The notes: generated by a model from the sequence alone, not told the origin. A stretch of DNA of 64,000 bases from a virus (IMGVR_UViG_3300028030_000010:1-64000); one strand, 5' to 3'; numbered from the stretch's first letter, positions 3,358 through 47,352 are shown. Program-made: numbers and translations.

Positions 3358-4404
3358 GTGATTATGTTTGACATTACAAATGACATGGATTTAAGTTTCT
3401 TATCTCAAGCATTGCATGATGCCCCAATAAAACCTGTAGAGTTAATAAAACAAGCAAATGTAAATATTGATTATTCTCAATTACCTAATGATATTTTTGC
3501 AGATCCTGTAGAAAAAAAATTTCCTATACATACTCCAGCAGATGCCGCTATTAGTGCACTTTATATTTATAAACAAGCATCAGAGGTAGACGAAGATGTT
3601 AAGCAAAGAGTAGCAAATGCATTAGAAGAATATGGATTAAAAGAGCTGGAGCCCTTATTAGAGGGTGAAAAAGAAATGGTGAAAATTGCAAGTGAAGAAC
3701 ACTTTCTTCTACCATCTAAATTAAAATTCCCAGCTTTAGATCCTGATATGTTACTTAAATCAGCTTCAGCTGCTGAAACATACTTCCATGTAATGCCTTT
3801 AAGCGATAAGGTAGAGCTTGCTACTAATTTGGTTAAAACAGCAGAAGAATTTAATATTGAACCTGAAAAGTTGCCAAAATGGGCTTTTGTGTATGGGCAA
3901 CATGCACCATGTAATTTAGAAAAGTTAGCCCATGAATTAGGTGTTAGATATGCTTATACAAAACATGAAGGCTATCAAGATCTCTTTCAAGAACTTAAAG
4001 GATTATTTAAAACAGCAGGAGAAATTAGTTTTGATGCTGGAACTAATAGAAGTATAGTTGCTAAATTGATAAAATTAGACAAACAAGCAAATATTTCTTA
4101 TGATGAGCTTCCTGATCCTTTTATTATTGTATTTAATGAAATTGACGCTCAACCAGAAGAAATATCAAAAACAGCTTCTGACGAGTTAGTAACAATTGGG
4201 GGAGTTGATTTTTATAAAGACGATTTAGCTGAGTTAATAATGAGCTCAGATGGTCCTGCTATTATTGGTGAAGATTTATATAAGGCAGCTGAAGAACATT
4301 ATAATGTTTTAGATGCAGATGCTGTGATTTCAGAGTTACAATCTTTACCTAAAGAGGCACAAGAATTAATAGCTGAATATTTAGTTCAGTACATAAATGA
4401 GTAA
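3358..4404 (+). CDS. Putative head/internal virion protein with many K-x-A motifs and an internally duplicated F-x-x-P-x3-KFP segment
   Basis: LIKQAN, IYKQAS, MVKIAS, LLKSAS, LVKTAE, LEKLAH, LFKTAG, LDKQAN, ISKTAS, LYKAAE, LPKEAQ; repeats IFADPVEKKFP and HFLLPSKLKFP. Confidence 0.55.
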   Translation: MIMFDITNDMDLSFLSQALHDAPIKPVELIKQANVNIDYSQLPNDIFADPVEKKFPIHTPADAAISALYIYKQASEVDEDVKQRVANALEEYGLKELEPLLEGEKEMVKIASEEHFLLPSKLKFPALDPDMLLKSASAAETYFHVMPLSDKVELATNLVKTAEEFNIEPEKLPKWAFVYGQHAPCNLEKLAHELGVRYAYTKHEGYQDLFQELKGLFKTAGEISFDAGTNRSIVAKLIKLDKQANISYDELPDPFIIVFNEIDAQPEEISKTASDELVTIGGVDFYKDDLAELIMSSDGPAIIGEDLYKAAEEHYNVLDADAVISELQSLPKEAQELIAEYLVQYINE

Positions 4405-4928
4405 TGTCTAATATAAATATTATTTTTCCAAAGGAGAATGTTTTTTCTCCTGTTAACAATGTTGTTGTTTCTCAAAATGTTAACACTGATACAATTTATC
4501 TTCAGGTTGGAGAAAATATTATTACTCTTCAAACTAAAAAAGCAGATTATTTTATACCCGGTTTAGAGTATGCAGACATAAATGATTGTACAGATTTGGT
4601 AAGAAGCAGAAATATTGTAGATATTATATTGTTTGTAAACAAATTTGCTCCAAAAGGGATTATAGATAAGGGGAGTGGTCCTTTCAAATTTTCATATTCT
4701 AAAAAAGAATTGTTTGGGTTTGTCTATTCGTCTGAGTTGTTGGAAATAAACATCAAAATTTCAGGGGATTGTTTATTGATTTTGAATAATAAACTATTCT
4801 ATGAAAACGCTAAAGTTAGCATTCCAAAAAATATTTTCTTACCTATCAGAATGATATTTTGTAACGGAACAATTGAATTTGGTGTTAATCAGAATATTTT
4901 TTACCTTTTAAAGGAGAAAGATGAATAA
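4404..4928 (+). CDS. Hypothetical protein
   Basis: 174 aa ORF, TAATG coupling with the upstream gene. Confidence 0.7.
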   Translation: MSNINIIFPKENVFSPVNNVVVSQNVNTDTIYLQVGENIITLQTKKADYFIPGLEYADINDCTDLVRSRNIVDIILFVNKFAPKGIIDKGSGPFKFSYSKKELFGFVYSSELLEINIKISGDCLLILNNKLFYENAKVSIPKNIFLPIRMIFCNGTIEFGVNQNIFYLLKEKDE

Positions 4929-5667
4929 AGCGTCTAAAGAAATACTGCATTTTGCACATCAAGTAGATGATTTAAAAAATTATATTATGAGTAGAAAACT
5001 TGATGAAGAAACATATAAGATGGTGTTTTCAAATGAAAAAATTCAGGCTTTAATTTTGTATTATGTTTTTTTAAATTTAGCCAGAGAAGATGCTTTTAAA
5101 ATGGAGATAGAAACCATTGATAATTTGATTTCTCCATATTCTGAATATAATGCAGAAAGACTTAAAGCTATGACTTCAATTCTAAAAACTGAACAAGTTT
5201 TTACAAATCCTATAGCTTTTAACGCAATGATTGAATGTTTTAATGGTCATGAAATTACAGTTGGAACATTAGAACCTTACCCAGCATATGAAATAGCTTG
5301 GACTTGCGCTAATGTGTTGGGAATATGGGGAAGCGAAACTTTTGCGTTCAAAGGAAATGCTTTAAGGTATATCAGAGCGTGTCTTGATTGGGAATCTTGG
5401 GAATTGCCTCCAGTGTTTTTATCTTTTCCAGTTATATTAGACATGTATGAAACTAAAAAATTAGAAATGTATGCATCGATTATTAAATATATGCAAAATC
5501 TAACATTAAAAGAAATATCTGAATTAGCAAATGACAAAAATGCTATAAAAACTTTTGAAAAAACTCCTTTTTTACTAAATTATATGGTAAAATGTTCAAT
5601 GGAAAGCCTTGCCTTGGTGAGGCTTATCAATGAAACAAACCAACAATTAAAAACAATTTTTGAATGA
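4921..5667 (+). CDS. Hypothetical protein
   Basis: 248 aa ORF with AAGGAG RBS. Confidence 0.75.
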   Translation: MNKASKEILHFAHQVDDLKNYIMSRKLDEETYKMVFSNEKIQALILYYVFLNLAREDAFKMEIETIDNLISPYSEYNAERLKAMTSILKTEQVFTNPIAFNAMIECFNGHEITVGTLEPYPAYEIAWTCANVLGIWGSETFAFKGNALRYIRACLDWESWELPPVFLSFPVILDMYETKKLEMYASIIKYMQNLTLKEISELANDKNAIKTFEKTPFLLNYMVKCSMESLALVRLINETNQQLKTIFE

Positions 5668-6218
5668 AAGGATTGCAAATGTTTGGTGGAACTCTTTATG
5701 ATCTTTATAAAATGGCTGCAGAAGATAAAAGAGATTATTCTGGGGCAGAAGCTGCTGCAGGAGTAGGTTTAGCTGGTGCCGGAATTTATGGTGGAGTAAA
5801 AGCAAAACAAATGGCAGATAAACAAAAAAGAGCTGAAGGTGCTTTATATTTTGCTAAAAAAAGAAAAGCTGAATCAGAAAACGCTAAAGATATTAATGTT
5901 AAAAAATTAAAACAAGTAAATAATAGAATTAAAGAACTAGAAGATTACAAACCATCTTTATTTAGCGCTTTATTCCGTGATGCAACAGCAAATAAAGTTC
6001 GTGAATTAGAACAGTTAGGTGTAAAAAAATCTGAATTAGAAAAAGTTGTTGCTCATATGGAAGGAAGAGCAGCTTCTAGCGAAGAAAAAGCAAAAGCTCT
6101 TGAAGAGGTAGTTGGCAAAATTAAAAAAGGAAAAGGTGTTGCTGCAGCCGGAGGAGCTTTAGGTCTTCTAGGTGGTGGTGGTTTACTTTATGATGCATAC
6201 CACAAAAAAGACCAATAA
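5664..6218 (+). CDS. Putative internal virion/ejection protein: N-terminal K-x-A motif, two Gly-rich hydrophobic segments flanking a coiled coil
   Basis: LYKMAAE; AAAGVGLAGAGIYGG; AAAGGALGLLGGGGLLY; basic C-terminus. Confidence 0.55.
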   Translation: MKGLQMFGGTLYDLYKMAAEDKRDYSGAEAAAGVGLAGAGIYGGVKAKQMADKQKRAEGALYFAKKRKAESENAKDINVKKLKQVNNRIKELEDYKPSLFSALFRDATANKVRELEQLGVKKSELEKVVAHMEGRAASSEEKAKALEEVVGKIKKGKGVAAAGGALGLLGGGGLLYDAYHKKDQ

Positions 6219-6227
6219 GGAATAGAA

Positions 6228-6784
6228 ATGAGTCTTTTATTTAAAGTAGCTCAAAACCTTCATGAAGATTTCTCTTCTGAAGGTCTCTTGTATAAAATTG
6301 CAAAGAAAAAAAACAAAAAAGAAAAAAAGGGCCTGCTAAAAAGAGAAATATAGATACTCTTATTAGAGATATTGACACAGCGTATGTTTCAAATGCAGAA
6401 AAAGTTAAGGCTAACATGAGCTTTGGTTCAGAAACAAATGCTGTATGGCCTGGAGCGAGCACTACTACTACTACAAAAAGTTCAGCACCTAATTGGAGCG
6501 CAATGGGGCCTGGTTCTGCGTATAATTATGTAATACATGGCACTGAATGGGATGGAAAACTTCCTGGAAGTGAAACTCCTAAAACTTCAACAACTACTTC
6601 TGATGTTCCTAATTGGAGTGCAATGGGACCTGGTGATGAATACAAAGATACAAACAAGTTATTAGAACAACCATCATTCTTCAGTAAACACAAAGGTAAA
6701 CTTGCAGCTGGAGCATTAGGTTTAATTTTAGCTGGTTATGGTTATCATAGATATAGACAGAATAATCAACAACAGCAACAATAG
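6228..6784 (+). CDS. Frameshifted putative virion protein (start 6228, -1 shift in the A-rich tract 6303-6329 joins ORF 6416..6784)
   Basis: AAGGA RBS + ATG at 6228 gives MSLLFKVAQ...LYKIAKKK; the -1 frame is open from 6329 into 6416..6784; PNWSAMGPG x2; C-terminal hydrophobic Gly-rich segment. Confidence 0.6.
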
Positions 6785-6849: not shown

Positions 6850-8472
6850 ATGTCTAACATAGCACATTTCGGTAGAACCATAACCAGATCGCAATTTGCG
6901 CAAGCTGTTTTGTGGTTAAAAGGCAAAAGATTCAATTTTGAGTTACATCAGCCTTTTAGAGAAATATACGACTGGCCTAAAAAAAATCTATTATTAAAAA
7001 CAGCTAGACAGGTTGGTAAATCTACTATGCTAGCTGCAACCCTTGTAACCGACTCTATGTTAGAGCCAAACAAAAGAACCTTTTATGCTACAACTTCTGA
7101 AAAACAAGCTAGGGAATTTGCTAGAGTTAAATTAAACGAATTTTTAGCTCGTTCACCTCTAGTTAGGAGATATTTATTAAACAAACATTCTTATGATGTA
7201 AAAGATAGTTTGTTTGACAAGAACTTTGCAAATGGTTCAGGAGTAACTATTTCTTATATGAAAGACAATGCTGATAGAACTAGGGGTTATTCTGCAGACA
7301 CTCTTATGTTAGATGAGATTCAAGATATGGACCCAAACGAAATACCTGTTGCATTAGAAATTTTATCAGCATCATTAGATCCTAGAAAATTATTTGCTGG
7401 TACACCTAAAACAATAGATAACCCAATTGAAATAATGTGGCAAAGATCTACTCAGCACGAAATATTTTTTAAATGTGAAAAATGTGGCAGTTGGAATGAT
7501 ATAGGGTATAAAAACATTGGTAAAAAAGGACCTATATGCTCTAAGTGCGGCGGATTATTAAATATGGAAAAATTTGTAATTATTCCTACCGCACCTGAAC
7601 CAGAAAAAGCCTTTTATGTTGGAGTAAGAGTTCCTCAGCCTGCATTAAAACTTCATTATGGTTTTGAAAACAAATGGAAAGATCTACTTCAAAAGTATGA
7701 AGAATATGATGAAGCCAAATTCAACAATGAGGTTCTTGGGATTTCGTTTTCTAAAGGTGCTCGTTTTATTACAGAAGAAGATATATTGGCTTGCTGTAGA
7801 CCAGGTGTGCACATTATAACTAATCCTGATAGGAACATTTTAAGAAGAAATTTTCAAACAATTGTTGCAGGAATAGACTGGAGTGGAGGAGGAATTGATT
7901 ACAATTCAAGAACTGTTTTAACTATATATGGAGAATTAAGAGGAGATGCTTCTTTTAGAGGAAGAGGAAGATTACAATTGCTTTATTATAAAATATACCC
8001 TCAGCAAGATTATATGATAACAATTAGGGATATTAAAAGGCAAATAGCATTATTTGGATGTCAGATTGTTGGAGCAGACGCTGGAGAAGGGGCTTTAAAC
8101 AATTCATATCTTGCAGATGCTTTTGGTCCACAAATGATTATACCTTTTAGATATGGTAAATTTGATAAAATCATTAAAAGAAGTCCTGATGGTTGGACAA
8201 TTTATTTAGACAAAACATCTGTTATAGATGATTTTTTTAAAGCTCTTAAACCAGGAAAAGTAGGTGATATTAATAGAGGAGGGAGGTTTATTTTTCCGTC
8301 TCCCGAAGAAATGAGAGAACCTATATTACATTTATTGTCAGAACACGAGCATATTACCAAAAATGGATACAGAATTTGGCAAAGAGGAACTCATCCAGAT
8401 GACTTCTTGCATGCTTCAGTATTTGCCTACAATGCCTTCAAGATATTAACAGGAGAATTTAAAGTTTACTAA
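6850..8472 (+). CDS. terL: Terminase large subunit
   Basis: Walker A TARQVGKST, Walker B LMLDE, motif III AGTP, CEKC...CSKC zinc-finger linker as in lambda gpA-type terminases, RNase H-like nuclease residues GIDW / DAG / DDFLHA. Confidence 0.93.
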   Translation: MSNIAHFGRTITRSQFAQAVLWLKGKRFNFELHQPFREIYDWPKKNLLLKTARQVGKSTMLAATLVTDSMLEPNKRTFYATTSEKQAREFARVKLNEFLARSPLVRRYLLNKHSYDVKDSLFDKNFANGSGVTISYMKDNADRTRGYSADTLMLDEIQDMDPNEIPVALEILSASLDPRKLFAGTPKTIDNPIEIMWQRSTQHEIFFKCEKCGSWNDIGYKNIGKKGPICSKCGGLLNMEKFVIIPTAPEPEKAFYVGVRVPQPALKLHYGFENKWKDLLQKYEEYDEAKFNNEVLGISFSKGARFITEEDILACCRPGVHIITNPDRNILRRNFQTIVAGIDWSGGGIDYNSRTVLTIYGELRGDASFRGRGRLQLLYYKIYPQQDYMITIRDIKRQIALFGCQIVGADAGEGALNNSYLADAFGPQMIIPFRYGKFDKIIKRSPDGWTIYLDKTSVIDDFFKALKPGKVGDINRGGRFIFPSPEEMREPILHLLSEHEHITKNGYRIWQRGTHPDDFLHASVFAYNAFKILTGEFKVY

Positions 8473-8506: not shown

Positions 8507-8797
8507 ATGAAACAATACACAGTTGAACACATTGCTTCTCTATTGGAAAAAGCAGCTGCGGAAATTGAGCTTAAAGATGCAAAAATTAAAGAATTAGAAG
8601 AAAAATTAAATCAATTAGAATCTAACCAAATTAATCAAGGCTTTGATTTCATGGAAAAAAATGCCTCTTATAACTCTATAGATGAGGAGTTCGGTAACTT
8701 AGAGGACTGGGGAAGCTTAGGTGAACCTTCTAACGTAAAACTGCCTTCAACTGATGCTAAAAAAGCCTTAGAAGATTTTTTGAGCTCTTTAGCTTAA
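8507..8797 (+). CDS. Small coiled-coil protein, possible scaffolding protein
   Basis: Coiled coil, acidic, K-x-A motifs (LEKAAA, MEKNAS), C-terminal amphipathic helix, located upstream of capsid genes. Confidence 0.45.
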   Translation: MKQYTVEHIASLLEKAAAEIELKDAKIKELEEKLNQLESNQINQGFDFMEKNASYNSIDEEFGNLEDWGSLGEPSNVKLPSTDAKKALEDFLSSLA

Positions 8798-8918: not shown

Positions 8919-9308
8919 ATGAAAAATATCGACATTGTAAGAGGGTATAGAAGCTTCGGGCACGAAGATCTTTACACTAGCGACCCTAATGTTGCAGTTC
9001 AACCTGGTGACATCATCACTATGGATGGACAAAAGGCTACATTAACAGATACTCACATTGAATGTGGTGTAGCTGTAGAAAGCAATGTAAACCCTATGGG
9101 TCAACAAAAACCTTCTGGAAAAATTCCTGTATATGTTAGTAATTTTGTTGTTAGATTCTATCAACCAGCGCCTGATGGTGTAAATCTAAATGATCCTGTG
9201 ACTGTTGTTGATGGTAAAGTTGCACCTTTGGATGACACTCATAAAGTTGTTTGGGGATATGTGACTAGAATTACAGAAACATCTTTTGATGTTAGAGTAA
9301 ATTACTAA
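8919..9308 (+). CDS. Putative capsid decoration/cement protein
   Basis: 129 aa beta-rich protein directly upstream of the major capsid gene; highly-expressed codon usage. Confidence 0.55.
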   Translation: MKNIDIVRGYRSFGHEDLYTSDPNVAVQPGDIITMDGQKATLTDTHIECGVAVESNVNPMGQQKPSGKIPVYVSNFVVRFYQPAPDGVNLNDPVTVVDGKVAPLDDTHKVVWGYVTRITETSFDVRVNY

Positions 9309-9321: not shown

Positions 9322-10260
9322 ATGAACATCAGAACTGAAGTTCCAACAATCAAAACTAATGCAGGACTTGTAAAAGCAGCAAGTGATGCTCAATTACTAA
9401 AGCAAGCAATGGATAACTCTACTTACTTCATTAGAGAAAGAGTAAGAGAGTTAGGATTTGCTAGAAAACTTATTGAACCTAAAATGGTAACACCGGCTGA
9501 CTTAGATAGAGTAAGCGGTTCAGAACAACCAGCAATCATCCTAGAAAAAGATATTGAAGCAACAGCGATGACTGTTCCATTCAGAGGACAAGGTGAAGCA
9601 AGATATTGGGAAAAAGAAAACCCAATTGTAGAATTCCAAAAAATTGAAACTGCAAAATTCCACAAATCAAAATTTGAGTTAATGAATTCTAAAACACCTT
9701 ACACAAAAATCTTAGAACAAAGATTTATCCAAGAAGCTCAAAAAGTTGAAGACGAAACTATGATTGAGGCTTTCAACAAAATCATCACAGATGCAAATGC
9801 TAAAGCTCCTGGAACTCAAGAGCAACATGTATCTGGAGGTCTAACAAAAGAAAACATTTCAATCCTTATCAAAATGTTAGCTAGACTAAGAATGATTCCT
9901 ACTGATCCTAAAGAAGGAAAACCTAAATTTCTTATGACTCAAACGTTAAAAGCAGACCTAGTAAATCTAGGAATGATTGAAATCGGTGATAAAAATGTTT
10001 CTAAAAACTGGGAAGAAGGCACTCTTGGTGTTGATAAACTTTTCGGTATCCCAGTTGTTACAACAATTAAAAACGATTTAGTAAAAGACAATGAAATGTA
10101 TATCGTTGCGCCACAAGACTACTTTGGTAGATTCTTTATTCTTCAAGATCACACTTTAGTAATCAAAACTGAAGCTGATATGATTGAAATGTGGACATAT
10201 GCAGCAATGGGGCTTGGACTAATCAATACTAAAGGTGTGTGCAGAATCGTGCTAGATTAA
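9322..10260 (+). CDS. Major capsid protein (HK97-like fold)
   Basis: 312 aa, position in head module, strong codon bias, HK97-like features (QKVEDET backbone helix, KLFGIPVVTT, terminal GLGL..KGV). Confidence 0.8.
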   Translation: MNIRTEVPTIKTNAGLVKAASDAQLLKQAMDNSTYFIRERVRELGFARKLIEPKMVTPADLDRVSGSEQPAIILEKDIEATAMTVPFRGQGEARYWEKENPIVEFQKIETAKFHKSKFELMNSKTPYTKILEQRFIQEAQKVEDETMIEAFNKIITDANAKAPGTQEQHVSGGLTKENISILIKMLARLRMIPTDPKEGKPKFLMTQTLKADLVNLGMIEIGDKNVSKNWEEGTLGVDKLFGIPVVTTIKNDLVKDNEMYIVAPQDYFGRFFILQDHTLVIKTEADMIEMWTYAAMGLGLINTKGVCRIVLD

Positions 10261-10332: not shown

Positions 10333-11286
10333 ATGATATTCTTCGACCCAAACAGACAAAAAGTAACAGCTATAGCAAAAGAAGCATTGGAGCAAGTAAA
10401 CCAAAGTGGAGAGTCTCCTGATTTGGTTATAGAAAAGTTATGCGATAATTATGGGTTAAATGCTAATTGGAGACAAAGAATTGTTGAAGAATACAACATT
10501 CAAGCGTTTCTGCAAAAACTCCAAGAAGGAACTCAACACGAACACTATCAAGTAGCACAACCTGTGATTGATGAATGTAAGCAATGGCTAGGTATTGAGT
10601 GGTATGAACCTATCCCTGAAAACAATTCAAATGAGGGGATTAAAAAAACAGCTTCTTATGGAGATGCGGGAGTAGTTCCTTTGAATGCATTTGAATATGA
10701 TGTTAATGAAGAATTTAAACCTTTTGATCCGCTATATGTTTCAGGAGATAATTTTGATGATACTATTGAATTAGAAAAAGTGGCTTTTGAAAAACAACAA
10801 ATGCTTCAAGAGATGCAAAAAGAAGAACTGCAAAAAGAAGCTAGTTATTACATTCAGCAAGCAGAAGATAAAATTTTAGGTGAGCTAATTAAGATAGCAA
10901 ATATATCTCCTGGATTTGCTAAATCAATTATTCACGATTTATCAAAAACTGCTAGTAGGGTTTATGCAGAAGATGTTCTCATTGGATGCAAACATAAACC
11001 AGAAGAAATTTTAGAAGCAAGTATATACGATGATGTTGCTCCATATGAATTTGAAAAATTAGCTTCTGTAAAAGGTTTAATAGAAGAGCTATCGTATCTT
11101 ATTCCTTTAAAAAAAGGAGTTGCTGCTGGTAAAGAAAAATTCATCGCTATGGCAAGAAAATTGAAAAGCGACCCTGTTCGTGGTATAATTATACCCGCAG
11201 TAATAATAAAAAATCTTTACAAAGAAATAACAGAATCGCCTAGTAAAGAGATTGGATTGAATATTAAAGCTTTTGCTGACCAATAA
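10333..11286 (+). CDS. Putative head protein with multiple K-x-A motifs
   Basis: IKKTAS, LEKVAF, LQKEAS, LIKIAN, LSKTAS, FEKLAS; follows the capsid gene. Confidence 0.55.
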   Translation: MIFFDPNRQKVTAIAKEALEQVNQSGESPDLVIEKLCDNYGLNANWRQRIVEEYNIQAFLQKLQEGTQHEHYQVAQPVIDECKQWLGIEWYEPIPENNSNEGIKKTASYGDAGVVPLNAFEYDVNEEFKPFDPLYVSGDNFDDTIELEKVAFEKQQMLQEMQKEELQKEASYYIQQAEDKILGELIKIANISPGFAKSIIHDLSKTASRVYAEDVLIGCKHKPEEILEASIYDDVAPYEFEKLASVKGLIEELSYLIPLKKGVAAGKEKFIAMARKLKSDPVRGIIIPAVIIKNLYKEITESPSKEIGLNIKAFADQ

Positions 11287-11297: not shown

Positions 11298-11450
11298 ATG
11301 GATAAAGAAACAAGAGATTTTTTAATTAAAAAAGCCCAAGAATTAAAAGAAGAGGCTAAAAGATACTTTTTAAAAAAAGTAGCAGCAACTAAAATTGTAG
11401 AGCAATATTTGATTTTGAAAGAATTGGAGAAAAATGAGAAAGATTTTTAA
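11298..11450 (+). CDS. Small unannotated protein (50 aa) with K-x-A motifs
   Basis: GAGGAG RBS; MDKETRDFLIKKAQELKEEAKRYFLKKVAATKIVEQYLILKELEKNEKDF; fills the gap between ORFs. Confidence 0.7.
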   Translation: MDKETRDFLIKKAQELKEEAKRYFLKKVAATKIVEQYLILKELEKNEKDF

Positions 11451-12048
11451 TGCGATAAAAGATAAGTTAAAAAAAGAATATGTGTCGGCTCCACTTAATG
11501 CTAAATCGCTGCTACTTAAAGCTCAGAAAGATTCTTTCTTATTAAGAAAATCAGAGATAGTTAAACTAGGAAAAGATTTGGTTGCAAAGGTAAGTTCACC
11601 TATAAAATGTAAAGAAAAAGACATATTAGTATCTTTCTACGAAAATGACAAGAGATATTTTATTGATGATTTCAAAGTTATAGGACCGAATAAAATAAGA
11701 ATTTCTGACGAATATTATAAATTATGGTCAACAATAGATGTTAAAACTCCGTGGTTAAAAATGCTTAAAGTAAGCTACTTGACTGATGATAGAACAAAAG
11801 CAAGAAAATTAGTTGTTAAAAATGGAAAGTTATTCATAAAAGCTTCAATTGTTGATGGTGATGTAAACTGTTTATACTCTGAAACAAACTCTGATATCAA
11901 TGCAACAATATCTTTTTCAAGAAAGAAAATCATATACAGACAATGTAAACCAACTATTTTAAAAGACATTGAAACAAATGAATGTTATATTTTAGTGATG
12001 GATAATTTTCTAGATTTAAAATTACAAAAGGTAGAGGATGGCTGCTAA
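11434..12048 (+). CDS. Hypothetical basic protein
   Basis: 204 aa ORF. Confidence 0.7.
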   Translation: MRKIFNAIKDKLKKEYVSAPLNAKSLLLKAQKDSFLLRKSEIVKLGKDLVAKVSSPIKCKEKDILVSFYENDKRYFIDDFKVIGPNKIRISDEYYKLWSTIDVKTPWLKMLKVSYLTDDRTKARKLVVKNGKLFIKASIVDGDVNCLYSETNSDINATISFSRKKIIYRQCKPTILKDIETNECYILVMDNFLDLKLQKVEDGC

Positions 12049-14596: not shown

Positions 14597-15007
14597 ATGG
14601 ATAGAAATGCTATTTTAAATCAAATCGTTGAAAGCGCTTCTAAAGAATTAAATGTGTTAGCTGCTGATGGAGAGTTACAAAAAGTTGCTTCTTCTATTCA
14701 AGAGGAAAATCATAAGCCTCAAATGCCTGATGCAATCAATGAAGAAGAAGGTCTCTTGCACAAAGTTGCAGAAGAACCTCAATTAACTCCAACTGAAGAA
14801 CAAATAGTTGCTCTTCTAAAAAAAGAAGCTCAAGAGTTGACAAAAACTGCTAGTGTAGTAGATGATGAAGAATTAGAGTTATTGTTAGAAAAAACGGCAA
14901 TGGAAGCTGGATTAGAATTAGTTGCTTTGGAAAAAACAGCAGAAGAATTTGGTAAAGCTGCAGCTCATGCTTTCTTAAGAGAATTAGGGATAGAAGCAGA
15001 GGTGTAG
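14597..15007 (+). CDS. Acidic K-x-A repeat protein, putative prohead core/scaffold
   Basis: LQKVAS, LHKVAE, LKKEAQ, LTKTAS, LEKTAM, LEKTAE within 136 aa. Confidence 0.55.
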   Translation: MDRNAILNQIVESASKELNVLAADGELQKVASSIQEENHKPQMPDAINEEEGLLHKVAEEPQLTPTEEQIVALLKKEAQELTKTASVVDDEELELLLEKTAMEAGLELVALEKTAEEFGKAAAHAFLRELGIEAEV

Positions 15008-15010: not shown

Positions 15011-15166
15011 ATGAAACTACAACAAGAATTAAAAAAAATAGCTTCGGAATTAAAAAACAATGAAGCGACACTTGTTTCTAAAGAAATTAGACCAATAGAA
15101 CTTTTAAAAAAAGCTGCGTTTGTAAAAATTAAAACATGGGATAGCTTTTTGCCAAAAAAAAGGTAG
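15011..15166 (+). CDS. Small unannotated protein (51 aa) with K-x-A motifs
   Basis: GAGG RBS; MKLQQELKKIASELKNNEATLVSKEIRPIELLKKAAFVKIKTWDSFLPKKR; fills the gap exactly. Confidence 0.7.
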   Translation: MKLQQELKKIASELKNNEATLVSKEIRPIELLKKAAFVKIKTWDSFLPKKR

Positions 15167-16674: not shown

Positions 16675-17328
16675 ATGGCAGCATTATGGACTGTTCCTGG
16701 TATTAACCATTTTGTAATTGGTACAGACAGAGATAAAATGGGGTTAACTGACTGGGTAATTAAAATTGTTGACCTATCTACAGGAAATGTAACTGATGAG
16801 ACTGCAAATGTTGAAGTAAGTGAAATCATTTACAATATTGATTCTCCAGCAACAGGAACTGTTGCAACAGATGTAGCAGCTGGTAGTAAGGTTTTACCTT
16901 TAAAAGAAGGTGACGGTGCGAATTTCTCAGCTGGAATGAAAGTAAAAATTAACACAGTGAATGGAGAAGAGTACAAAGAAATTAGAAAAGTTACAGGCGA
17001 CATTCTAACATTCTTCAAACCTCTAAAATCAGATGTTATTGCAGACACTGATAATGATGGTAAAGCTGACAACACTGTAACACAAGTAGGTAACTCAGGA
17101 GATTATAGAGTTGTAGTTGACACTGAAAAATTAAGCACAAATATTGTAGCTGGCGGTGACTATCAAGTGCAAGTTACAAGTGCAGCTGGAGAAATTGATG
17201 TAACTTCAGAAATCTTCCATGCTACTGATTACGATTATGATAACCTAAAAGGTGATATTGATTACCTAAAACAAGGTATTGATAATCTACTTAATGGAGG
17301 GCTTGGAGGAGCAAAAATTTACCTCTAA
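16675..17328 (+). CDS. Putative virion structural protein ending in GAKIYL
   Basis: 217 aa, own promoter (GGTTATAAT 16635-16643), highly-expressed codon usage, C-terminal short coiled coil. Confidence 0.55.
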   Translation: MAALWTVPGINHFVIGTDRDKMGLTDWVIKIVDLSTGNVTDETANVEVSEIIYNIDSPATGTVATDVAAGSKVLPLKEGDGANFSAGMKVKINTVNGEEYKEIRKVTGDILTFFKPLKSDVIADTDNDGKADNTVTQVGNSGDYRVVVDTEKLSTNIVAGGDYQVQVTSAAGEIDVTSEIFHATDYDYDNLKGDIDYLKQGIDNLLNGGLGGAKIYL

Positions 17329-33269: not shown

Positions 33270-35405
33270 ATGTCATTAAGAATAAGACCTTACGTAAGTG
33301 TAGCTGAGTCAATTGCTCAAACAGCTCCTAACTTACTTCAAGTTACAATGCCAACTATTATAGTTGGACCTGCGGTGGATGAAAAAACTGGTTTTGACGC
33401 AGAGTTGGATTTTACTGTTATAAACAACGCTAGAATTTCTGATTTGCTTGCATTAGATTCTACTGGTAAAGTATTTAAAATTGCTGGTATTAGACCTGGT
33501 GCTACTATAGACGTGTCTAGCTTAGAGTTTGGTGCTAAAGAATTAAGTAGCGTTGTTGATTTTGCTGGGAAAGAACTTCATTTTCATGTTAAATCTTCTA
33601 CAGAAAAACACATTCTTGTATTAGAAAGTGGAGATAATTATGTTACAGAGCAAGATCTATTAGATAAAGGTGTTTTAATTGGGGATGATTTAACTATAAA
33701 TCCTCCAACAGAAGATGATGCGCCATTTACATCTAAAATTAGAGACTTTGGTAGAGATGATGATGGAAATCTATTAGTGTATCTATGGGATGAAGTTCCT
33801 TATGATGTGGATGAGACCACTTCATTAACTGCAAGCATTACAAAATATTTTAATAATGTAGCTTTAACTAAATCAGGCTTCACAATAGAAAATGTGGTAG
33901 GTTTTAGTGATAGCGTACTAATTAAAGGACCTGGTAGTTTTTCATTTGATTATTTTGTGTATCAGCCTACAGATGTAACTCCAGACTTTTCAAATATAAA
34001 AGTTTCAATTACTCCTTTAGTATTACCTAACACAAATCAAATAAAAATAACAGCATCAGCAAAAGATGGAAGATTATTTAACTGGTTTGTTGCAAATAGA
34101 ACAGATATTGCAAATCAAATCATTGATGTAAATTATAATAACTATCAAACTATTATAGGTAAAGGAACAATTAAAAACAAATTAGGTAAAGCTCTTGAGC
34201 TAATAGCTAATGAAATTCCAGGATTTAATGTGAAAATTTTTGTAGTAGAAAATGATAGCGATGACGCTTATACAAAAGCTCTAAATATACTTTCAACATC
34301 TACTAAAGCTTATCAAGTTAGTTGCTTAAGTGATTCTGAAAATGTATTAAACGCTTTAATTGGTGCAATCAAAAAAGGTGAACAACCTGAAATTAGTGCA
34401 TACAAAATGGGAATCTTTGCTCCAAGATTGCCTTTAATTTCTAAAAAACTAACACTAACTGATGCAACTATTACTGACAACGGAGATGGTACATTTACTA
34501 TTGAAACTCCTACAGGTGGATTTAGTGTAAGTGGAATTAGAGAAGGTGATGTGATAATTGGTTCTGAAGATTTAAAAATCGCAGATGAAGAATATTACAA
34601 TACAGTAGGAGAACCGTATACTGCTAAAGCAGTTGCAACTGTAACTACAGTAATCACTGATAAAAAACTTATAGTTACTCCTATTATATCTAACGCTAAT
34701 GTTGCTGAGGCTTTAAGCGGTCAAAATATAGTATTTATTTCTATTAACAACAAAGATGTTGTTGCAGATAGAATTAAAAAATTAGCTGAAAGTATTAATA
34801 ATATGCATATGGTGCTTGTTTTTCCTGATAAATTCATTATAGATGAAGAATTAGTTCCTGGTTATTATGTTGCTAGCCTTCTAGCTGCTATAATGGGACA
34901 TTTGCCTCCTCAACAAGGTTTAAGCAATCTATCTGTCAGAACTGTTGATAGAGTAGTTGGGTCTTCTTTCTATTATACTGACACAGAATTAGATGAAATT
35001 GCGGCAAGTGGGGTTACTGTGTTAGCTCAATCAAGTTATGACACTCCTCCATTTATAATTAGACAACTTACAACAAACATGAATTCTCTGGAAGAAATGG
35101 AGATTAATAAAGTTAGATGTTTAGATTATGCTGCTTTATCTATTAAAAATGTTGTAGATGGTTATGTAGGAAAAAGAAACGTTACTCAAAGAAACGTTAG
35201 TGATATAGCAGAGACAATTAAAGCTACTTTAAACAATATTATTAGAACAACAGCAAATGACTTATTAGGAAGCGTGATTACTAGTTATAAAATAAACAAT
35301 ATTGCAATTCCTGAGGATGAGCCTGATGCTATCACAGGAGATATAGAGGTGTATACACCAACATCTCTAAATGCAATTAGATTGTTTGTTAAATCAAAAA
35401 GTTAA
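33270..35405 (+). CDS. Tail sheath protein
   Basis: N-terminal RPYVSV, C-terminal sheath domain (PGYYVAS, ELDEIAASGV, RQLTT, EINKVRCLDY, PTSLNAIRL); promoter TGCTAAAAT 33203-33211. Confidence 0.88.
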   Translation: MSLRIRPYVSVAESIAQTAPNLLQVTMPTIIVGPAVDEKTGFDAELDFTVINNARISDLLALDSTGKVFKIAGIRPGATIDVSSLEFGAKELSSVVDFAGKELHFHVKSSTEKHILVLESGDNYVTEQDLLDKGVLIGDDLTINPPTEDDAPFTSKIRDFGRDDDGNLLVYLWDEVPYDVDETTSLTASITKYFNNVALTKSGFTIENVVGFSDSVLIKGPGSFSFDYFVYQPTDVTPDFSNIKVSITPLVLPNTNQIKITASAKDGRLFNWFVANRTDIANQIIDVNYNNYQTIIGKGTIKNKLGKALELIANEIPGFNVKIFVVENDSDDAYTKALNILSTSTKAYQVSCLSDSENVLNALIGAIKKGEQPEISAYKMGIFAPRLPLISKKLTLTDATITDNGDGTFTIETPTGGFSVSGIREGDVIIGSEDLKIADEEYYNTVGEPYTAKAVATVTTVITDKKLIVTPIISNANVAEALSGQNIVFISINNKDVVADRIKKLAESINNMHMVLVFPDKFIIDEELVPGYYVASLLAAIMGHLPPQQGLSNLSVRTVDRVVGSSFYYTDTELDEIAASGVTVLAQSSYDTPPFIIRQLTTNMNSLEEMEINKVRCLDYAALSIKNVVDGYVGKRNVTQRNVSDIAETIKATLNNIIRTTANDLLGSVITSYKINNIAIPEDEPDAITGDIEVYTPTSLNAIRLFVKSKS

Positions 35406-38914: not shown

Positions 38915-41900
38915 ATGTTTGCATATGATTCTAATTTTGATTTAAACAATCCGTTTTATTTATATTTGTTAATGAAAGCTAAAAACAATCAACATATTTT
39001 TAATCATGCGATAGGATACAATCCATTTTTGATGCAAGATGATGATAGTTATGGATTCGACATCATAAACCATGTACCTTATTTGAATAGTCCATTTGTT
39101 GAACACGATTTTGGGTTAAAAGACATTTGGCTTCAAAAATGGGGAGCTTCTAGACAATTAGGGTTAAACAATATTTATGCTAATTTAGCTGCACAACAAC
39201 AATATGAATTAGAAGCTGAAAGCTTAAAAATAGGACTTTTCTCGACAGGTTTACAAGTAGGAAGTTTGGCTTTAGGTGGATGGATTGGAATACCTATTGG
39301 AATGGGAATAGATTATTTAACAGACAAGTATAAAGAAAATATCCACAAAATATATGCTCAAAATCAAAAAGTAAATATATTAACTTCTGGTTTATTAGGA
39401 GAAACAGGGGTTGATACTGGTTTATCTGCAAAAGAAGTCAAAGGTATTTCTAGATATATTAGAAAACTAGCTGTAGATGATGATTTGTTTAGTGCAGACG
39501 ATATTCAAGACATGATGCTTAAATTAACGAAAACAGGATTTTTAAACAATGTTAATTCTTCGCAAGAATTTAAAAAGATAACAAGAATTCTTAAAGATAG
39601 AGTTAAAGACTTAGCTGAATTTTTAGGAGAAACAGACCCTTCAAAATTATTAAACGATTTAGCTAAATATAAGAGTTTAGGATTTAACGCAAAACAATCA
39701 TTTGATATGATTAAATCGATAAAGATAGCATCTGATTTAAGTGGGATTAACAAAGAATTAATAGGACAAATGATTGGATTAGCAACATCTCAAGAAAACC
39801 CTCTATCAATAGATAGAAGATTAGTAGCTAAACAGCTAACCACTCAATTGTATCAAATAAACTATTTATCTAGAGGACCTTTTCAATCACATTATTTAAC
39901 AAACAGAAAAGAATATATGAATGCATATATGACCGCAAACCAAAAAGCAGAAGTTGCTCTAAATACTCAATTTGGATTTGATACAAATAAAGATGTGTAT
40001 TTAGCTATGGTATATGCTCAAAAGCATAAAATTAGCTTGCAAAAAGCATTCGACATAATTCAAAATATGAACACTACACAAAAAAGCGAATTAGTTAATA
40101 AATTTTCTACAGAAATAAAAGACTTTAGTAGAATATTTTTTGATAAAAATGCTTTAGCTACAGTAGTTCAAGAAAACCCTGAAGTAGGTAACTTGCATAT
40201 AAAAAGAACTCCTTTACAGAGATTGATAGATAGGGCTATAGAACAATTAGGTGGAAAAGCAACTGTCGAACAAATAGTTTCATTTTTGTCTCTAAATGGC
40301 TTTAATTCTAGAGAGATCTCGGCTGCAGTCCCTCTTATTGAAAACAGATTAAAGTTTGGCAATTGGAAAATGTTAGATTTACAAACAGAATCAGCTGAAT
40401 TCAAAAAACAAACATTAGACATACTTAACGAAAGGATAAAATATAAACAAAGACATGGATTTATTAACACTGTCGGCAGATGGATAAGAGGTGCAGAAAA
40501 CTGGATCACAGAATTTTTTGGTGGAGGCACTGGAGAAGATTTATTTAGCGAAGAGAAGCTCAGAGAAATGGCATTAAAATATAAAGCATCTGACAATAAT
40601 GAATATAGCCTCTATTTTAGAAGTCAAAACTTTAAAGAATTAACCGGAGCAAAAACATTTAAACAATATTTAAAAAATTTGGTTACCTATGGCAAAAAAT
40701 ACAAACACCCTCAGCTAACAGACGATAAAATAGAAGAAAACTTGGAAGAAGTGTCTGATTTTGCTGACAAAACAGGCTTAGATAAATATTTTGACAAAGA
40801 CTTTATTAGATATTCTTTTAAAAAAGAATGGTTAAAAGAAAATGTTTCTAATCCTTATCAATACTTCAAGCATTTATATAAAGAAAAATATAAAATGTTA
40901 AAATCTGATGATATGTTTAACAGCTTCTTAAATCCTTCAATAGAAGTGTTTACTCAATTAAGGACTCCTACAAAAAAAGTTGCCGAGTTTTTAGAGGAAC
41001 ACCCTGAATATGGTCAGTTTATTTCAAATAAAGGTTTAAGAGGTAGATTCCAAGTTGAATTAATGGCGTCTCTTTATGATAAGAATTTGTTACCTGAACC
41101 GGCTAAAACAGCAAAAATAATGAAAGCAGCTAATTTATATTTTGATTTAGCTAAATCAGGCAAACAAAATCAGTTTGAGGAAGAACTAAAAAAAAGAAAC
41201 ATTGTTCTAAATGAAGAGAGTATTAAAACCATAAAAGAAACATATTCTGCTTATGCAGACAAAACAACTCAAAAATCAAAATTAATAGAAGCAGCAATAA
41301 AAGGAGATGCAGAAGAATTTAAAGCGCAATTATTTAAAAGTTATGCGTTAGATAATACAGATATTGAATCATTAAAAAGAGAATTCAAAGATTTAGGGGT
41401 TGATGAAGATTTTATCAACATTTTAAATAAAAGAGAATTTGGAAATTTATCAAATATTTTTAAATCTAGAAAAGAAAAAGAAGGTTTAAAGGCGGCAGAA
41501 AAATTTTTAGGGGTATTAAATAGTGTAAATATATCTAAAAATGTTAGAAGTAAAATTGAAAAAGCCATAGAAAGTGGCGATAAAGAAGCTCTAGCTAAGG
41601 CAATAGACCTAATCAAAGATAAAAATGTAAAATACAAAGTAGCAAAAGGGGCTTTAGCTTTTACCCAATCAATGAAAGAACAAGATATTGATGAAGACGA
41701 ATGGGGGAAACTATTTAAAATAGCAAAAATAGACACCAGAAAAAAAGCATGGAAAAACATAGAAAACATTACTCACTTATTAGGAATAGATTACGCATCT
41801 AATGAAGAAAAATTAAAAATTATCCAAAAATGGAGTCAATCTCCTATAGAAGCTTTAGAGGAAATTAACAAAATAAGAAAAGCGCATCATCAGTCAAGTT

Positions 41901-42109
41901 TAGATTTGTCAGATTTAGATAGAATTGCTAAAATAACTTCAACTCAAAAACTTTTAGGATTGAAAGATAAATCAACTTTAAGTTTTATGGAAAAAGCGAG
42001 TCAATTAGATACTAAAAATCTTGAAGTAATGCAAGTAACAATACAAAAAGAAATGTTAAAAGAAATGAGTGAATCAAGAAAATTATTGAAAAAAATTGCA
42101 GAATCTTAA
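38915..42109 (+). CDS. Tape measure protein
   Basis: 1064 aa, helical, Gly-rich hydrophobic segment, follows the chaperone frameshift cassette. Confidence 0.75.
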   Translation: MFAYDSNFDLNNPFYLYLLMKAKNNQHIFNHAIGYNPFLMQDDDSYGFDIINHVPYLNSPFVEHDFGLKDIWLQKWGASRQLGLNNIYANLAAQQQYELEAESLKIGLFSTGLQVGSLALGGWIGIPIGMGIDYLTDKYKENIHKIYAQNQKVNILTSGLLGETGVDTGLSAKEVKGISRYIRKLAVDDDLFSADDIQDMMLKLTKTGFLNNVNSSQEFKKITRILKDRVKDLAEFLGETDPSKLLNDLAKYKSLGFNAKQSFDMIKSIKIASDLSGINKELIGQMIGLATSQENPLSIDRRLVAKQLTTQLYQINYLSRGPFQSHYLTNRKEYMNAYMTANQKAEVALNTQFGFDTNKDVYLAMVYAQKHKISLQKAFDIIQNMNTTQKSELVNKFSTEIKDFSRIFFDKNALATVVQENPEVGNLHIKRTPLQRLIDRAIEQLGGKATVEQIVSFLSLNGFNSREISAAVPLIENRLKFGNWKMLDLQTESAEFKKQTLDILNERIKYKQRHGFINTVGRWIRGAENWITEFFGGGTGEDLFSEEKLREMALKYKASDNNEYSLYFRSQNFKELTGAKTFKQYLKNLVTYGKKYKHPQLTDDKIEENLEEVSDFADKTGLDKYFDKDFIRYSFKKEWLKENVSNPYQYFKHLYKEKYKMLKSDDMFNSFLNPSIEVFTQLRTPTKKVAEFLEEHPEYGQFISNKGLRGRFQVELMASLYDKNLLPEPAKTAKIMKAANLYFDLAKSGKQNQFEEELKKRNIVLNEESIKTIKETYSAYADKTTQKSKLIEAAIKGDAEEFKAQLFKSYALDNTDIESLKREFKDLGVDEDFINILNKREFGNLSNIFKSRKEKEGLKAAEKFLGVLNSVNISKNVRSKIEKAIESGDKEALAKAIDLIKDKNVKYKVAKGALAFTQSMKEQDIDEDEWGKLFKIAKIDTRKKAWKNIENITHLLGIDYASNEEKLKIIQKWSQSPIEALEEINKIRKAHHQSSLDLSDLDRIAKITSTQKLLGLKDKSTLSFMEKASQLDTKNLEVMQVTIQKEMLKEMSESRKLLKKIAES

Positions 42110-45169: not shown

Positions 45170-45832
45170 TTATTGTCCTTCTTGATCTTTTTTATTTTTT
45201 GCGTAAAGATATGCTCCTGCTCCTACAGGAATTCCATAAGCAACACCAGATGCTGCAACGCCTTTTCCTAATTGTTTCCAATCTACATTAAGTTTATCAC
45301 CTTCTTTTTTAAATGCTCCTCTGATGCCTCTTAACATGTAAGCATCTTTTGTCCCTTGCCAACCTTTGCTTAAAATTTCTTTAATTTTATTAGCTGCCTC
45401 AGCTCCTTCTTTTGCAGCTTCTTCTTTTGCTCCAGCTTCTTTTGCTAGTTCAGGATATGCTGATGCGAAAATATAATCAACATCTTGTTGATCAAATCCT
45501 AAAGCTTCTCCAATTCCATAAACTTGTTCTGGTTCTAATGCTCCAGCTGCAAATAAATCAACCGCTGCTGCAACTTTTACAAGTGGTAAAGTGTTTTCAT
45601 CAGTAACCACAGAAGCTAATTTTTGAAGCTCATCCTCAGCCGCTTCTTTCTCTAAATCAGCAGCTCCAAAAAGATTTGCTCCTAAAACAATTTCATCTGG
45701 ATGAATGCCTTGCTCAGCTGCAAACGCAATTACTTCTTCAGGGTTGTATCCTTCATTAATAGCCTCAATTGCTGCTGCAATTTTTTCTAATCTTGAGCTT
45801 TCTTGTGAAGCTAATTTAGTTAAAACGTTCAT
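45170..45832 (-). CDS. K-x-A repeat protein with C-terminal Gly-rich hydrophobic segment (putative internal virion protein)
   Basis: LTKLAS, LEKIAA, LEKEAA, LQKLAS, LVKVAA, LAKEAG; two similar ~65 aa helical repeats; GVAASGVAYGIPVGAGAYLY; promoter TGCTACAAT (-) 45870-45878. Confidence 0.55.
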   Translation of the reverse strand: MNVLTKLASQESSRLEKIAAAIEAINEGYNPEEVIAFAAEQGIHPDEIVLGANLFGAADLEKEAAEDELQKLASVVTDENTLPLVKVAAAVDLFAAGALEPEQVYGIGEALGFDQQDVDYIFASAYPELAKEAGAKEEAAKEGAEAANKIKEILSKGWQGTKDAYMLRGIRGAFKKEGDKLNVDWKQLGKGVAASGVAYGIPVGAGAYLYAKNKKDQEGQ

Positions 45833-45894
45833 GTTCTTTCCTTTTTATAGGTTTTTTGTTTCACAATAAATTGTAGCATATAATTTTTCTTTTA

Positions 45895-46908
45895 TCAAGT
45901 TTTTTCTTTTTTGCTTAATAATTTTTCTAATGCTTTACCCATTCCATAACCAATCAATCCTCCCCATAGAGCCTTACCGGCCATATGCCCTATTAATTGT
46001 TTATCAAAAAGTTTTTTATTAGCACCTCTTATTATATCTATATTGTCACTATCATAGTGATTTTTTAGTTTGCCTGCTATATTAGGTAATAAATAATGTT
46101 TTAGCTTTGTAGTTAATTTTGTTCCTTTAAAATTATGAAGCCTATCAGCTTTTACAGCTTCTTTATACTCATCATCAAGAAGTTGCAGTATCTTGTCACC
46201 ACCCAGTCTACCTATGCCTCTATAAATAATTGGCTCTGTAGCACTTGAAATAGCCATAGTAGCTGCTAATTGGGTAGATGGGTCCATAATGTGTTTTTTC
46301 TTTAATTCATCTTCCAATTCTTCTCCCACTCCTGTTTGAACAGCACCCAAAACTCCACCACTTATTGCACCTCTAATAATTCTTTTAGGCCCTCCTAAAA
46401 GCCCCATTGCAGCTCCAATAACTCCTCCATTTACTCCGCCTAACAAACTATCTTTAAAAACACTTTTCTTTTTTTTCTCTTCGTGTTTTATAGGGTTTAT
46501 TTCTATACCCGCCTCCTCCATTATTTTTTGTTTAGCATCTTCAGAAAGGGCTGCACTTTTTGCTAAAACACTTTCTTCTTTTGCGAATTTGCCATCTAAT
46601 TTTTTATTTATCAAAAATCTTCTGGCTCTTCTCGCTTTCTCCACATTTCTTTTATTGTTTAAATAACCTATTACTCCGCCTATTGTACTTCCTATACCAT
46701 AATATCCTATTACACCCTTAGGAGATAGCCTACCTCCTTTAAAAGATTCGTGAATAGTTTTTGGAATTCCTATAGCTAAAGCACCTTTCCATGCGCCATC
46801 GGCAATTGGCTCTATACTATGTTCAGTGTAAGGATATAAGGCATTTGCTTTTGCTTCTTCTTCTAAAAGATATTCTTTTATTTGCTCATCTCTCGTTTTT
46901 TTTGACAT
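45895..46908 (-). CDS. Glycine-zipper membrane-like protein (putative ejection protein)
   Basis: Several GxxxG segments; LAKSAA motif separating two halves. Confidence 0.5.
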   Translation of the reverse strand: MSKKTRDEQIKEYLLEEEAKANALYPYTEHSIEPIADGAWKGALAIGIPKTIHESFKGGRLSPKGVIGYYGIGSTIGGVIGYLNNKRNVEKARRARRFLINKKLDGKFAKEESVLAKSAALSEDAKQKIMEEAGIEINPIKHEEKKKKSVFKDSLLGGVNGGVIGAAMGLLGGPKRIIRGAISGGVLGAVQTGVGEELEDELKKKHIMDPSTQLAATMAISSATEPIIYRGIGRLGGDKILQLLDDEYKEAVKADRLHNFKGTKLTTKLKHYLLPNIAGKLKNHYDSDNIDIIRGANKKLFDKQLIGHMAGKALWGGLIGYGMGKALEKLLSKKEKT

Positions 46909-46911
46909 TTA

Positions 46912-47352
46912 TTACCTTTTGCTTATGGCATTTCCTGTAGTTAAATAAGACACATTATCGCCGCTTACACCTTTGTTTATGTCTGCAATAATTTTTGCAG
47001 TTGCTAAATCAAAGTTCCCTCCATATTGGTATATTTGATATAAAGCGTCAGCTGCTAGCTCTTGATTTGAAGCGATTTTAGGAGAAAGAGTATATAAAGC
47101 CATTAACCATTGTTTTAGTTTACTTTCACCTACATCTTGTAATTCAGGATGTTTTTTAATCGCATATCTCATTATAGTAGGAATTTTAGCTTTATACATT
47201 TGCGCACCAGCTAAATCAATAGCTTTATCTGCTAACAATACTCCTGTAGTAGCAATACCTATGCTACCAGCTAATCTAGCCGCATCTTTAATCACACTTT
47301 CTTCTTTAGGAGTTCCGCTAGCTTCTTTTACAAGATGTAATAGTCCAGCCAT
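46912..47352 (-). CDS. Putative virion protein with N-terminal K-x-A motif
   Basis: LVKEAS; hydrophobic LAGSIGIATTGVLLA; promoter TGGTATCAT (-) 47374-47382. Confidence 0.5.
   Translation of the reverse strand: MAGLLHLVKEASGTPKEESVIKDAARLAGSIGIATTGVLLADKAIDLAGAQMYKAKIPTIMRYAIKKHPELQDVGESKLKQWLMALYTLSPKIASNQELAADALYQIYQYGGNFDLATAKIIADINKGVSGDNVSYLTTGNAISKR

Follow-up and report, generated by a model that had tools for sequence, protein, structure and literature searches.

A Lys-x-Ala motif shared by predicted head proteins of a large uncultured phage is a probable recognition site of its own prohead protease

Introduction

Positions 1-64000 of the 76,440-bp contig IMGVR_UViG_3300028030_000010, from an uncultured virus (this 64,000-bp stretch is hereafter 'the window'), raise the question of why one short peptide motif, [LIMF]xKxA[SAE] (x, any residue), recurs near the start of the major capsid protein and in a series of otherwise dissimilar proteins. 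The source is a large contractile-tailed phage with a G+C content (GC) of ~30%. The original prediction, made from the sequence of the window, was that the motif is a maturation-cleavage and/or packaging signal of Lys-x-Ala specificity. To our knowledge, cleavage after Glu is the rule for all phage prohead proteases whose multi-substrate code has been mapped (T4, phiKZ, 201phi2-1, SPN3US), and we found no description of a K-x-A code in the searchable literature.

Here we present comparative evidence that supports this prediction, and we assign a probability of about 0.78 to the reading that L/I/M/F-x-K-x-A, often followed by S, A, or E, serves as the recognition and cleavage site of a prohead serine protease that the phage itself encodes. 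We regard a cleavage and/or packaging signal as supported because the contig encodes a protease with a T4 gp21/assemblin fold whose catalytic domain is bracketed by the motif; because four phages combine the motif with this protease subfamily; because the L, K, and A positions are more constrained than their surroundings in orthologues; because the proteins of phage Arash with at least two strict motifs are virion proteins; and because the established T4 code, tested in the same way, leaves the same kind of signature in the known T4 substrates. From these comparisons we infer the cutting, the cut positions and bond, and the packaging of cargo.

Results

The motif is enriched on the contig and concentrated in a small set of proteins

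We searched the 83 open reading frames (ORFs) of the 76-kb contig for a strict form of the motif, [LIMF]xKxA[SAE], and a relaxed form, [LIMFV]xKxA, using within-protein shuffles as the null model. The strict motif occurs 39 times, vs. 6.2 ± 2.5 times in shuffled proteins (z = 12.9): that is, the enrichment over shuffled controls implied by the original prediction is present, and is large. Eight variant motifs (reversed, K/A-swapped, K>R, K>E, A>G, A>S, and two shifted spacings) were assessed with the same shuffles, and, because all eight stay at z below 2.3, amino-acid composition and helical periodicity are ruled out as the cause. A scan of all gapped tripeptides in the proteome, run without reference to the predicted motif, places L.K.A at rank 1 (57 vs. 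11.7; z = 13.2) and places K.AS, E..K.A, and K.A.E among the top nine. Glu-ending codes of the T4 and phiKZ types are not concentrated in any contig protein and were rejected, with P < 0.01 in 1 of 83 proteins for [LI]xE and in 0 of 83 for [SAG]xE (z = -0.7).

Matches are concentrated in about seven motif-dense proteins and three tiny ORFs, and at the N-terminal ends of the capsid protein and of several small proteins. The motif-bearing proteins are as follows (site counts, relaxed/strict; homology to the orphan myovirus Arash, by BLAST against its complete genome of 180,819 bp and GC 53%):

3364-4404, + strand: motif-dense protein, 346 residues (3358-4404 in the original prediction); 12/6 sites, spaced ~25-40 residues apart; 12 vs. 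0.84 expected, P < 0.0003
5664-6218, + strand: 184-residue protein; one site, LYKMAA, at residue 14; P = 0.17
6228-6353, + strand: 41-residue ORF; LFKVAQ and LYKIAK; P = 0.005
8507-8797, + strand: 96-residue coiled-coil-like protein; LEKAAA at residue 13 and MEKNAS at residue 49; P = 0.0005
9322-10260, + strand: major capsid protein, HK97-type, 312 residues, 31% identity to Arash gp226; LVKAAS at residues 16-21 and LLKQAM at residues 25-30 (DNA 9367-9411)
10333-11286, + strand: motif-dense protein, 317 residues; 7/4 sites; P < 0.0003
11298-11450, + strand: 50-residue ORF; LIKKAQ and LKKVAA; P = 0.024
14597-15007, + strand: 136-residue protein; 7/5 sites with a period of ~27 residues; P < 0.0003
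15011-15166, + strand: 51-residue ORF; three sites, including LKKIAS and LLKKAA; P = 0.0007
27686-29959, + strand: 757-residue homologue of Arash virion protein gp218; 7/2 sites; 7 vs. 1.25 expected, P = 0.0003
45170-45832, - strand: 220-residue modular protein; 6/5 sites
45895-46908, - strand: 337-residue protein; one mid-protein site, LAKSAA, at residue 115; P = 0.19
46912-47352, - strand: 146-residue protein; LVKEAS at residue 7 and VIKDAA at residue 20; not significant singly

Proteins with per-protein P < 0.001 include 3358-4404, 10333-11286, 14597-15007, 15011-15166, 27686-29959, and 45170-45832. Proteins with one site do not reach significance singly, and conservation backs only the capsid protein and the protease described below. 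The dense recurrence in dissimilar proteins that was originally reported holds, with every per-protein count reproduced to within about one by the relaxed form, and the tiny unannotated ORFs with the motif number three instead of the two first noticed. The reported rarity of the motif in tail genes holds as well: the tail sheath carries a single site, IKKLAE, and sheath and baseplate-region genes carry 0 or 1. The original prediction added the caveat that the tape measure also has several matches; the protein that it took to be the tape measure (38915-42109; 1064 residues) does have matches, but with only mild enrichment (6 vs. 2.35; P = 0.03).

A prohead protease encoded beyond the window is bracketed by the motif

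The original prediction stated, correctly, that no protease gene is recognisable in the window. One lies in the remainder of the contig, beginning 5.6 kb past the window end:

Contig 69630-70286, + strand: predicted prohead protease, 218 residues, by match to phrog_18299, by fold, and by homology to Arash gp222

The ORF spans 69603-70286 and has Met10 as its likely start, hence 218 residues. The protein matches phrog_18299 ('head maturation protease'; E = 1e-9) and phrog_2774 (E = 1e-12) and is the best-conserved head protein in common with Arash (39% identity to the N-terminal part of gp222). Its sequence homologues at 26-35% identity comprise Bacillus phage G gp19, Rhodococcus phage E3 gp77 (annotated 'prohead protease'), Gordonia phage Stormageddon gp13 (annotated 'capsid maturation protease'), and proteins of cluster C mycobacteriophages, as a group annotated as head or capsid maturation proteases; papers on phage G call gp19 a maturation protease and give no motif. 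In mycobacteriophage I3 gp103, the protease domain is the N-terminus of a larger protein and is followed by a Gly/Ser-rich linker.

An AlphaFold model of the protease built from 22 homologues (predicted local distance difference test score, pLDDT, 83.8) was compared with 48,161 PDB representatives using VIA-align. The best match is T4 gp21 (Z = 9.9; 128 residues, 3.0 Å), followed by the proteases of varicella-zoster virus (VZV; Z = 9.5) and human cytomegalovirus (HCMV; Z = 6.8), with the next unrelated fold at 5.5; Foldseek gives the same ranking with weak E-values (5jbl: probability 0.99, E = 0.016). Residues His94 (in NHDNKD) and Ser145 (in VSMG) are invariant in the 22 homologues, and hhalign places H94 on H85 of T4 gp21 and S145 beside S140, in an alignment that is not significant (E = 0.21). 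We conclude from the model that the protein is a predicted serine protease of the assemblin/T4 gp21/HK97 type, with an assemblin-like fold and a conserved His-Ser pair.

The motif is present on both sides of the catalytic domain. Ahead of it lies FLVKTAA, in which L27-x-K29-x-A31 is invariant in homologues, and directly after it most homologues have M-L-T-K-S-A-S. The same bracketing is observed in Arash gp222 (LTKQAA at residue 28 and LEKVAN at 216, with more sites in a C-terminal extension), in the protease of Vibrio phage D69 (LEKSAA at 25 and LQKVAS at 212), and in phage G gp19 (LVKTAA at 41 and LEKVAS at 246/LLKIAS). Sites on either side of the catalytic domain are a trait of self-processing proteases in this superfamily (PMC5694885).

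The protease also has, at residues 155-172, after the catalytic Ser, an invariant, zinc-ribbon-like Cys-x2-Cys...Cys-x-His insert, which is present in Arash gp222, the D69 protease, phage G gp19, and the N-terminus of I3 gp103, is absent from T4 gp21, and complicates assignment of the third catalytic residue. As for other candidates, the protein encoded at 29949-30731 was dropped as a possible protease after contig 69630-70286 matched, and it and the further in-window candidates (1230-2027, 4404-4928, 4921-5667, 8919-9308, 11434-12048, and 16675-17328) have no protease match in Pfam or PHROGs.

The L, K, and A positions are conserved in the capsid protein and in motif-dense proteins

Matches of the capsid protein in the phage collection are limited to Arash gp226, a capsid protein present in virions (PMC10585845), and proteins of Vibrio phages D69, D181, and D148 (31% identity). 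The alignment to gp226 begins at residue 22, and LLKQAM (residues 25-30) aligns with LVKEAG (residues 25-30) of the Arash protein. In essentially all of ~99 full-length homologues, down to 32% identity, K-x-A is found at the equivalent position; the residues ahead of it are variable, with G-R-V-K-E-A in the most distant clades. A short N-terminal propeptide, of about 29 residues, is predicted for the contig protein.

For the 3364-4404 family (11 sequences), the L, K, and A columns are 86% conserved, vs. 63-64% at x positions and elsewhere in the protein, and several L-K-A triplets are invariant; the protein is a probable core- or scaffold-like substrate. It also has two conserved K-F-P boxes (FADP..KKFPIHTP and LLPSK.KFPA) and a weak likeness to DUF6582, and DUF6582 and DUF2213 proteins are among its structure neighbours in the Atlas. 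For the 45170-45832 family (31 representatives, clustered at 50% identity), motifs occur at 2.5 per 100 residues and at conserved positions. The alignment shows a ~60-residue helical module in variable copy number, each copy bounded by L-x-K-x-A; after the last module come L-x-K-E-A-G, a basic stretch, and a Gly-zipper tail. In the contig protein two such helical modules, both modelled with pLDDT > 90, precede LAKEAG, a basic stretch, and a Gly-zipper tail. In 27686-29959, the sites lie at residues 150-270, between two conserved ends, and those of Arash gp218 lie at residues 151 and 181.

The protein of 8507-8797, encoded upstream of the capsid gene, is a candidate scaffold; 5664-6218, with a C-terminal Gly-zipper and basic tail, is a candidate for propeptide removal; and the N-terminal site of 46912-47352 is a candidate short tag or propeptide. 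It is uncertain whether 45895-46908 belongs to the motif system. The three tiny ORFs (41-51 residues) each begin 3-12 nucleotides past a motif-bearing gene and hold two or three motifs. Read-through fusing them to the upstream genes was ruled out by their own Shine-Dalgarno sequences and ATG codons, as checked for 6228-6353 (Shine-Dalgarno-like AAGGA) and 15011-15166 (GAGG ahead of ATG), and by the absence of tRNA genes from the window; the tiny ORFs are likely to be real small head proteins that annotation would miss.

A second feature is shared by 5664-6218 (+), 6416-6784 (+), and 45170-45832 (-), which are otherwise dissimilar: a similar tail, comprising a Gly-zipper hydrophobic stretch and then a Tyr-x3-Lys/Arg-rich stretch. 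This tail could be a second signal: for example, one that anchors internal head proteins to a membrane or to DNA.

The motif and the protease occur together in distant phages

Arash, D69, and phage G each encode a homologue of the contig protease, and each is enriched in the motif. For the whole Arash genome, the strict motif occurs 43 times, vs. 11.5 ± 3.4 (z = 9.3), with occurrences concentrated near the capsid gene: in gp220 (8), gp223 (7), gp225 (5), and gp242 (4), all of which are virion proteins by mass spectrometry (PMC10585845). All 8 of the Arash proteins with at least two strict motifs are on the published virion list (PMC10585845, Table 2). For the 40-kb head region of D69, the count is 28 vs. 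3.2 (z = 14.4), with a similar gene-by-gene pattern, and, for the first 34 kb of phage G, 11 vs. 2.0 (z = 5.9). Motif and protease subfamily are thus found together in four very different phages, and the motif persists across genomes of GC 30% and 53%.

Phage T4, for which the code is known, served as a control. With the same shuffle test, [LI]xE stands out in three established substrates of gp21, namely gp22 (16 vs. 5.8), gp68, and gp23, and likewise in gp21 (7 vs. 2.5) and inh; T4 tail and baseplate proteins show no enrichment. The K-x-A motif is not enriched in T4 (3 vs. 2.0). The contig pattern is of the same kind as the T4 signature and is stronger, because the motif is more specific.

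Other recognised genes of the contig

The following further genes were recognised:

6850-8472: large terminase (phrog_675)
25194-26960, + strand: RNA polymerase beta' subunit (BLAST against Arash; 29% identity to gp216)
29949-30731: homologue of Arash gp219
33270-35405: tail sheath (PHROG match)
51771-56084, - strand: RNA polymerase beta subunit (BLAST against Arash; 29% identity to gp206)
57491-59314, - strand: portal (BLAST against the whole Arash genome)
63178-64443, + strand: ORF at the window end, running past 64000, with no known part in the motif system

Among tail genes, PHROG annotation picked out the sheath only. The beta' and beta genes of the phage-encoded multisubunit RNA polymerase are on opposite strands with 25 kb between them. 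In Arash and D69, the virion RNA polymerase beta subunit begins M-P-K-S/K-A-S; the window orthologue begins MFYKIDD, without the motif. Mass spectrometry of Arash identified 116 virion proteins, with RNA polymerase beta and beta' among the abundant ones, and no protease was named (PMC10585845).

Discussion

How a protease code would operate, and which bond would be cut

If the motif is the recognition and cleavage site of the prohead protease, assembly could proceed as follows. The protease and the motif-bearing proteins would be built into the prohead, and the protease would release itself by cutting the motifs that flank its catalytic domain. It would then strip the capsid protein of its ~29-residue propeptide and small internal proteins of their short N-terminal leaders; single N-terminal sites would thus mark propeptides or short leaders, like the capsid-targeting sequences of T4. 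The motif-dense proteins (3364-4404, 10333-11286, 14597-15007, 45170-45832, and part of 27686-29959) would be cut every 10-40 residues into fragments or modules, as core- or scaffold-like substrates or as polyprotein-like cargo.

As to the bond, we lean slightly towards cutting after Ala, as in the herpesvirus V/L-x-Ala↓Ser rule: the P1 residue would be Ala and the frequent P1' residue Ser, and a strict Ala suits a shallow S1 pocket. Cutting after Lys, as in T4 L-x-Glu↓ with Lys in place of Glu, is a serious but less probable alternative; it would give the T4 register, with a hydrophobic P3 residue and a charged P1 residue of reversed charge, and the HK97 capsid protein is cut after Lys103. 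That the motif is not a cleavage site at all appears improbable. The natural C-termini of homologues (...LTKS stop vs. ...LTKSAS...) and the M-x-K-x-A-S starts do not discriminate between the bonds. A more speculative proposal, to which we give little credence, is that the motif is a portable two-in-one tag: a short N-terminal M-x-K-x-A-S would suffice to load an enzyme (for example, Arash or D69 RNA polymerase beta) into the prohead and would then be trimmed at Ala↓Ser by a protease that cuts like herpesvirus assemblin, and the motif-bounded modular proteins would be polyprotein-like cargo freed as individual small proteins for ejection.

Evidence against cleavage, and alternative explanations

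Several observations weigh against a protease code. The support is wholly comparative, and it is from comparison that we infer cleavage itself. The protease has no Pfam match (E <= 1) and no PDB sequence match, and its profile alignment to T4 gp21 falls short of significance, as noted above. The protease gene is ~60 kb from the capsid gene on the contig; in Arash and D69 the two form one module. The phage G capsid protein has no K-x-A at the equivalent place. Mycobacteriophage I3 (cluster C) has a homologous protease domain and no motif enrichment (z = 2); because K-x-A is not enriched there, the I3 branch probably uses another cleavage rule. The model of 45170-45832 places motifs at confident helix starts within folded modules, not in obvious linkers. 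Finally, the trypsin-based Arash proteome has coverage that is often 100%, with no sign of missing propeptides (PMC10585845).

The alternative that survives best, although we consider it unlikely, is that the motif is a short binding signal, for capsid targeting or scaffold docking, that loads proteins into the prohead through contact with the shell, the core, or the protease and is uncut or is cut incidentally. Cutting at the very N-terminal sites would release only 3-8 residues (MPKSAS in Arash RNA polymerase beta; MPKKAS/MFKSAS in D69), and the sites of the 45170-45832 family lie at residues 3-8; motifs also lie within confidently modelled helices, and the motif-dense Arash proteins are still detected in virions. 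The T4 capsid-targeting sequence provides a precedent for a short N-terminal tag (PMC5694885), but that tag ends in a cleavage motif, so the two roles are compatible. A binding signal leaves unexplained the sites that bracket the protease catalytic domain in four lineages, the site in the capsid protein's own N-terminus, and the presence of 6-12 copies per protein at a spacing of 10-40 residues; cleavage by the prohead protease is the reading that we retain.

It is much less probable that the motif is the structural signature of a duplicated helical module, with core Leu/Ala and surface Lys, having no role as a signal or in cleavage. Motifs do repeat with the module, with a 27-residue period in 14597-15007 and ~60-residue modules in the 45170-45832 family, and the model puts them at helix starts. 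However, the motif is present in mutually dissimilar proteins (the HK97-type capsid protein, the protease flanks, the gp218 homologue, and the tiny ORFs), is kept across genomes of widely different GC, and is not enriched in unrelated T4 head proteins, and the reversed and shifted variants that an amphipathic helix would also be expected to yield are flat. Least probable of all is a post-translational modification or cross-link in the head that uses the invariant Lys as its acceptor, with L-x-K-x-A as the recognition site of the enzyme. Lys is strict, with Arg never enriched, and other systems offer examples of a short consensus sequence surrounding an acceptor Lys, but the head modules showed no candidate for a modifying enzyme, and the positions of the sites, in propeptide-like N-termini and protease flanks, are typical of processing.

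Significance

Most likely, the system is of a known kind, its specificity is new, and the code is widespread. We found no published cleavage motif for phage G gp19, E3 gp77, Stormageddon gp13, or the cluster C proteases, and no literature on head-protein processing in phage G or cluster C phages. If the reading is correct, the fold would comprise a second specificity class, Lys-x-Ala, possibly near the herpesvirus Ala↓Ser rule, and the motif would provide a sequence-only route to head-internal, processed proteins in a large, mostly uncultured clade of ~180-kb RNA polymerase-encoding phages, the structural genes of which are nearly all annotated 'hypothetical'. Sites cut after Lys would be invisible to ordinary tryptic proteomics, which could explain why the code has gone unnoticed. 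Arash, the Vibrio phage D69 group, and phage G are in culture, and the idea is therefore directly testable.

Comparison with known systems

As in known cleavage codes, the motif is enriched in head and core proteins without enrichment in tail proteins, and it is found near the capsid N-terminus and flanking the protease. The closest parallel is the processing programme of T4, in which an L/I-x-Glu code marks gp22, gp67, gp68, gp23, gp24, IPI-III, and Alt (PMC5694885). The contig protease has the fold of T4 gp21 (PDB 5jbl), with His and Ser in the same order, and in both systems one short motif marks a multi-site scaffold or core, the capsid propeptide, the leaders of internal proteins, and the protease itself, such that the proposed steps resemble the action of gp21 on gp22, gp67, gp68, gp23, and internal proteins. 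The systems differ in that the contig motif has Lys and Ala and no Glu, in that the sequence similarity of the proteases is not significant, and in that the contig protease carries the Cys/His insert. The T4 capsid propeptide is 65 residues, in contrast to the much shorter one predicted here.

The phiKZ gp175 and SPN3US gp245 proteases (MEROPS S80; S/A/G-x-Glu) serve large myoviruses whose heads contain a packaged multisubunit RNA polymerase and numerous other internal proteins. A short motif marks where these proteins are cleaved, propeptides hold several copies of it, and the protease undergoes C-terminal self-cleavage (PMC5694885, PMC10052503). Arash and the contig likewise encode RNA polymerase beta and beta', but the motif is a different one, the protease belongs to a separate subfamily, and the phages considered here have genomes of ~180 kb and a capsid protein of only 312 residues. 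We conclude that the contig code is not a Glu-type (T4/phiKZ) code, though it appears to work in the same way.

Herpesvirus assemblins (VZV, 1vzv; HCMV, 8j3s) share the fold, and the motif site directly after the catalytic domain is placed like their release site; their release/maturation consensus is (V/L/I)-x-Ala↓Ser. The contig motif differs in having an invariant Lys two residues before Ala and a hydrophobic residue four before Ala (two in herpesviruses), and in having Ser directly after Ala in only ~25-30% of sites. Among phage homologues, gp19 of phage G is motif-bracketed and encoded in a genome with an enriched head region; E3 gp77, Stormageddon gp13, and the cluster C proteases are homologous. 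I3 differs, with the domain fused into a 1408-residue protein, with no enrichment of the motif, and probably with another rule.

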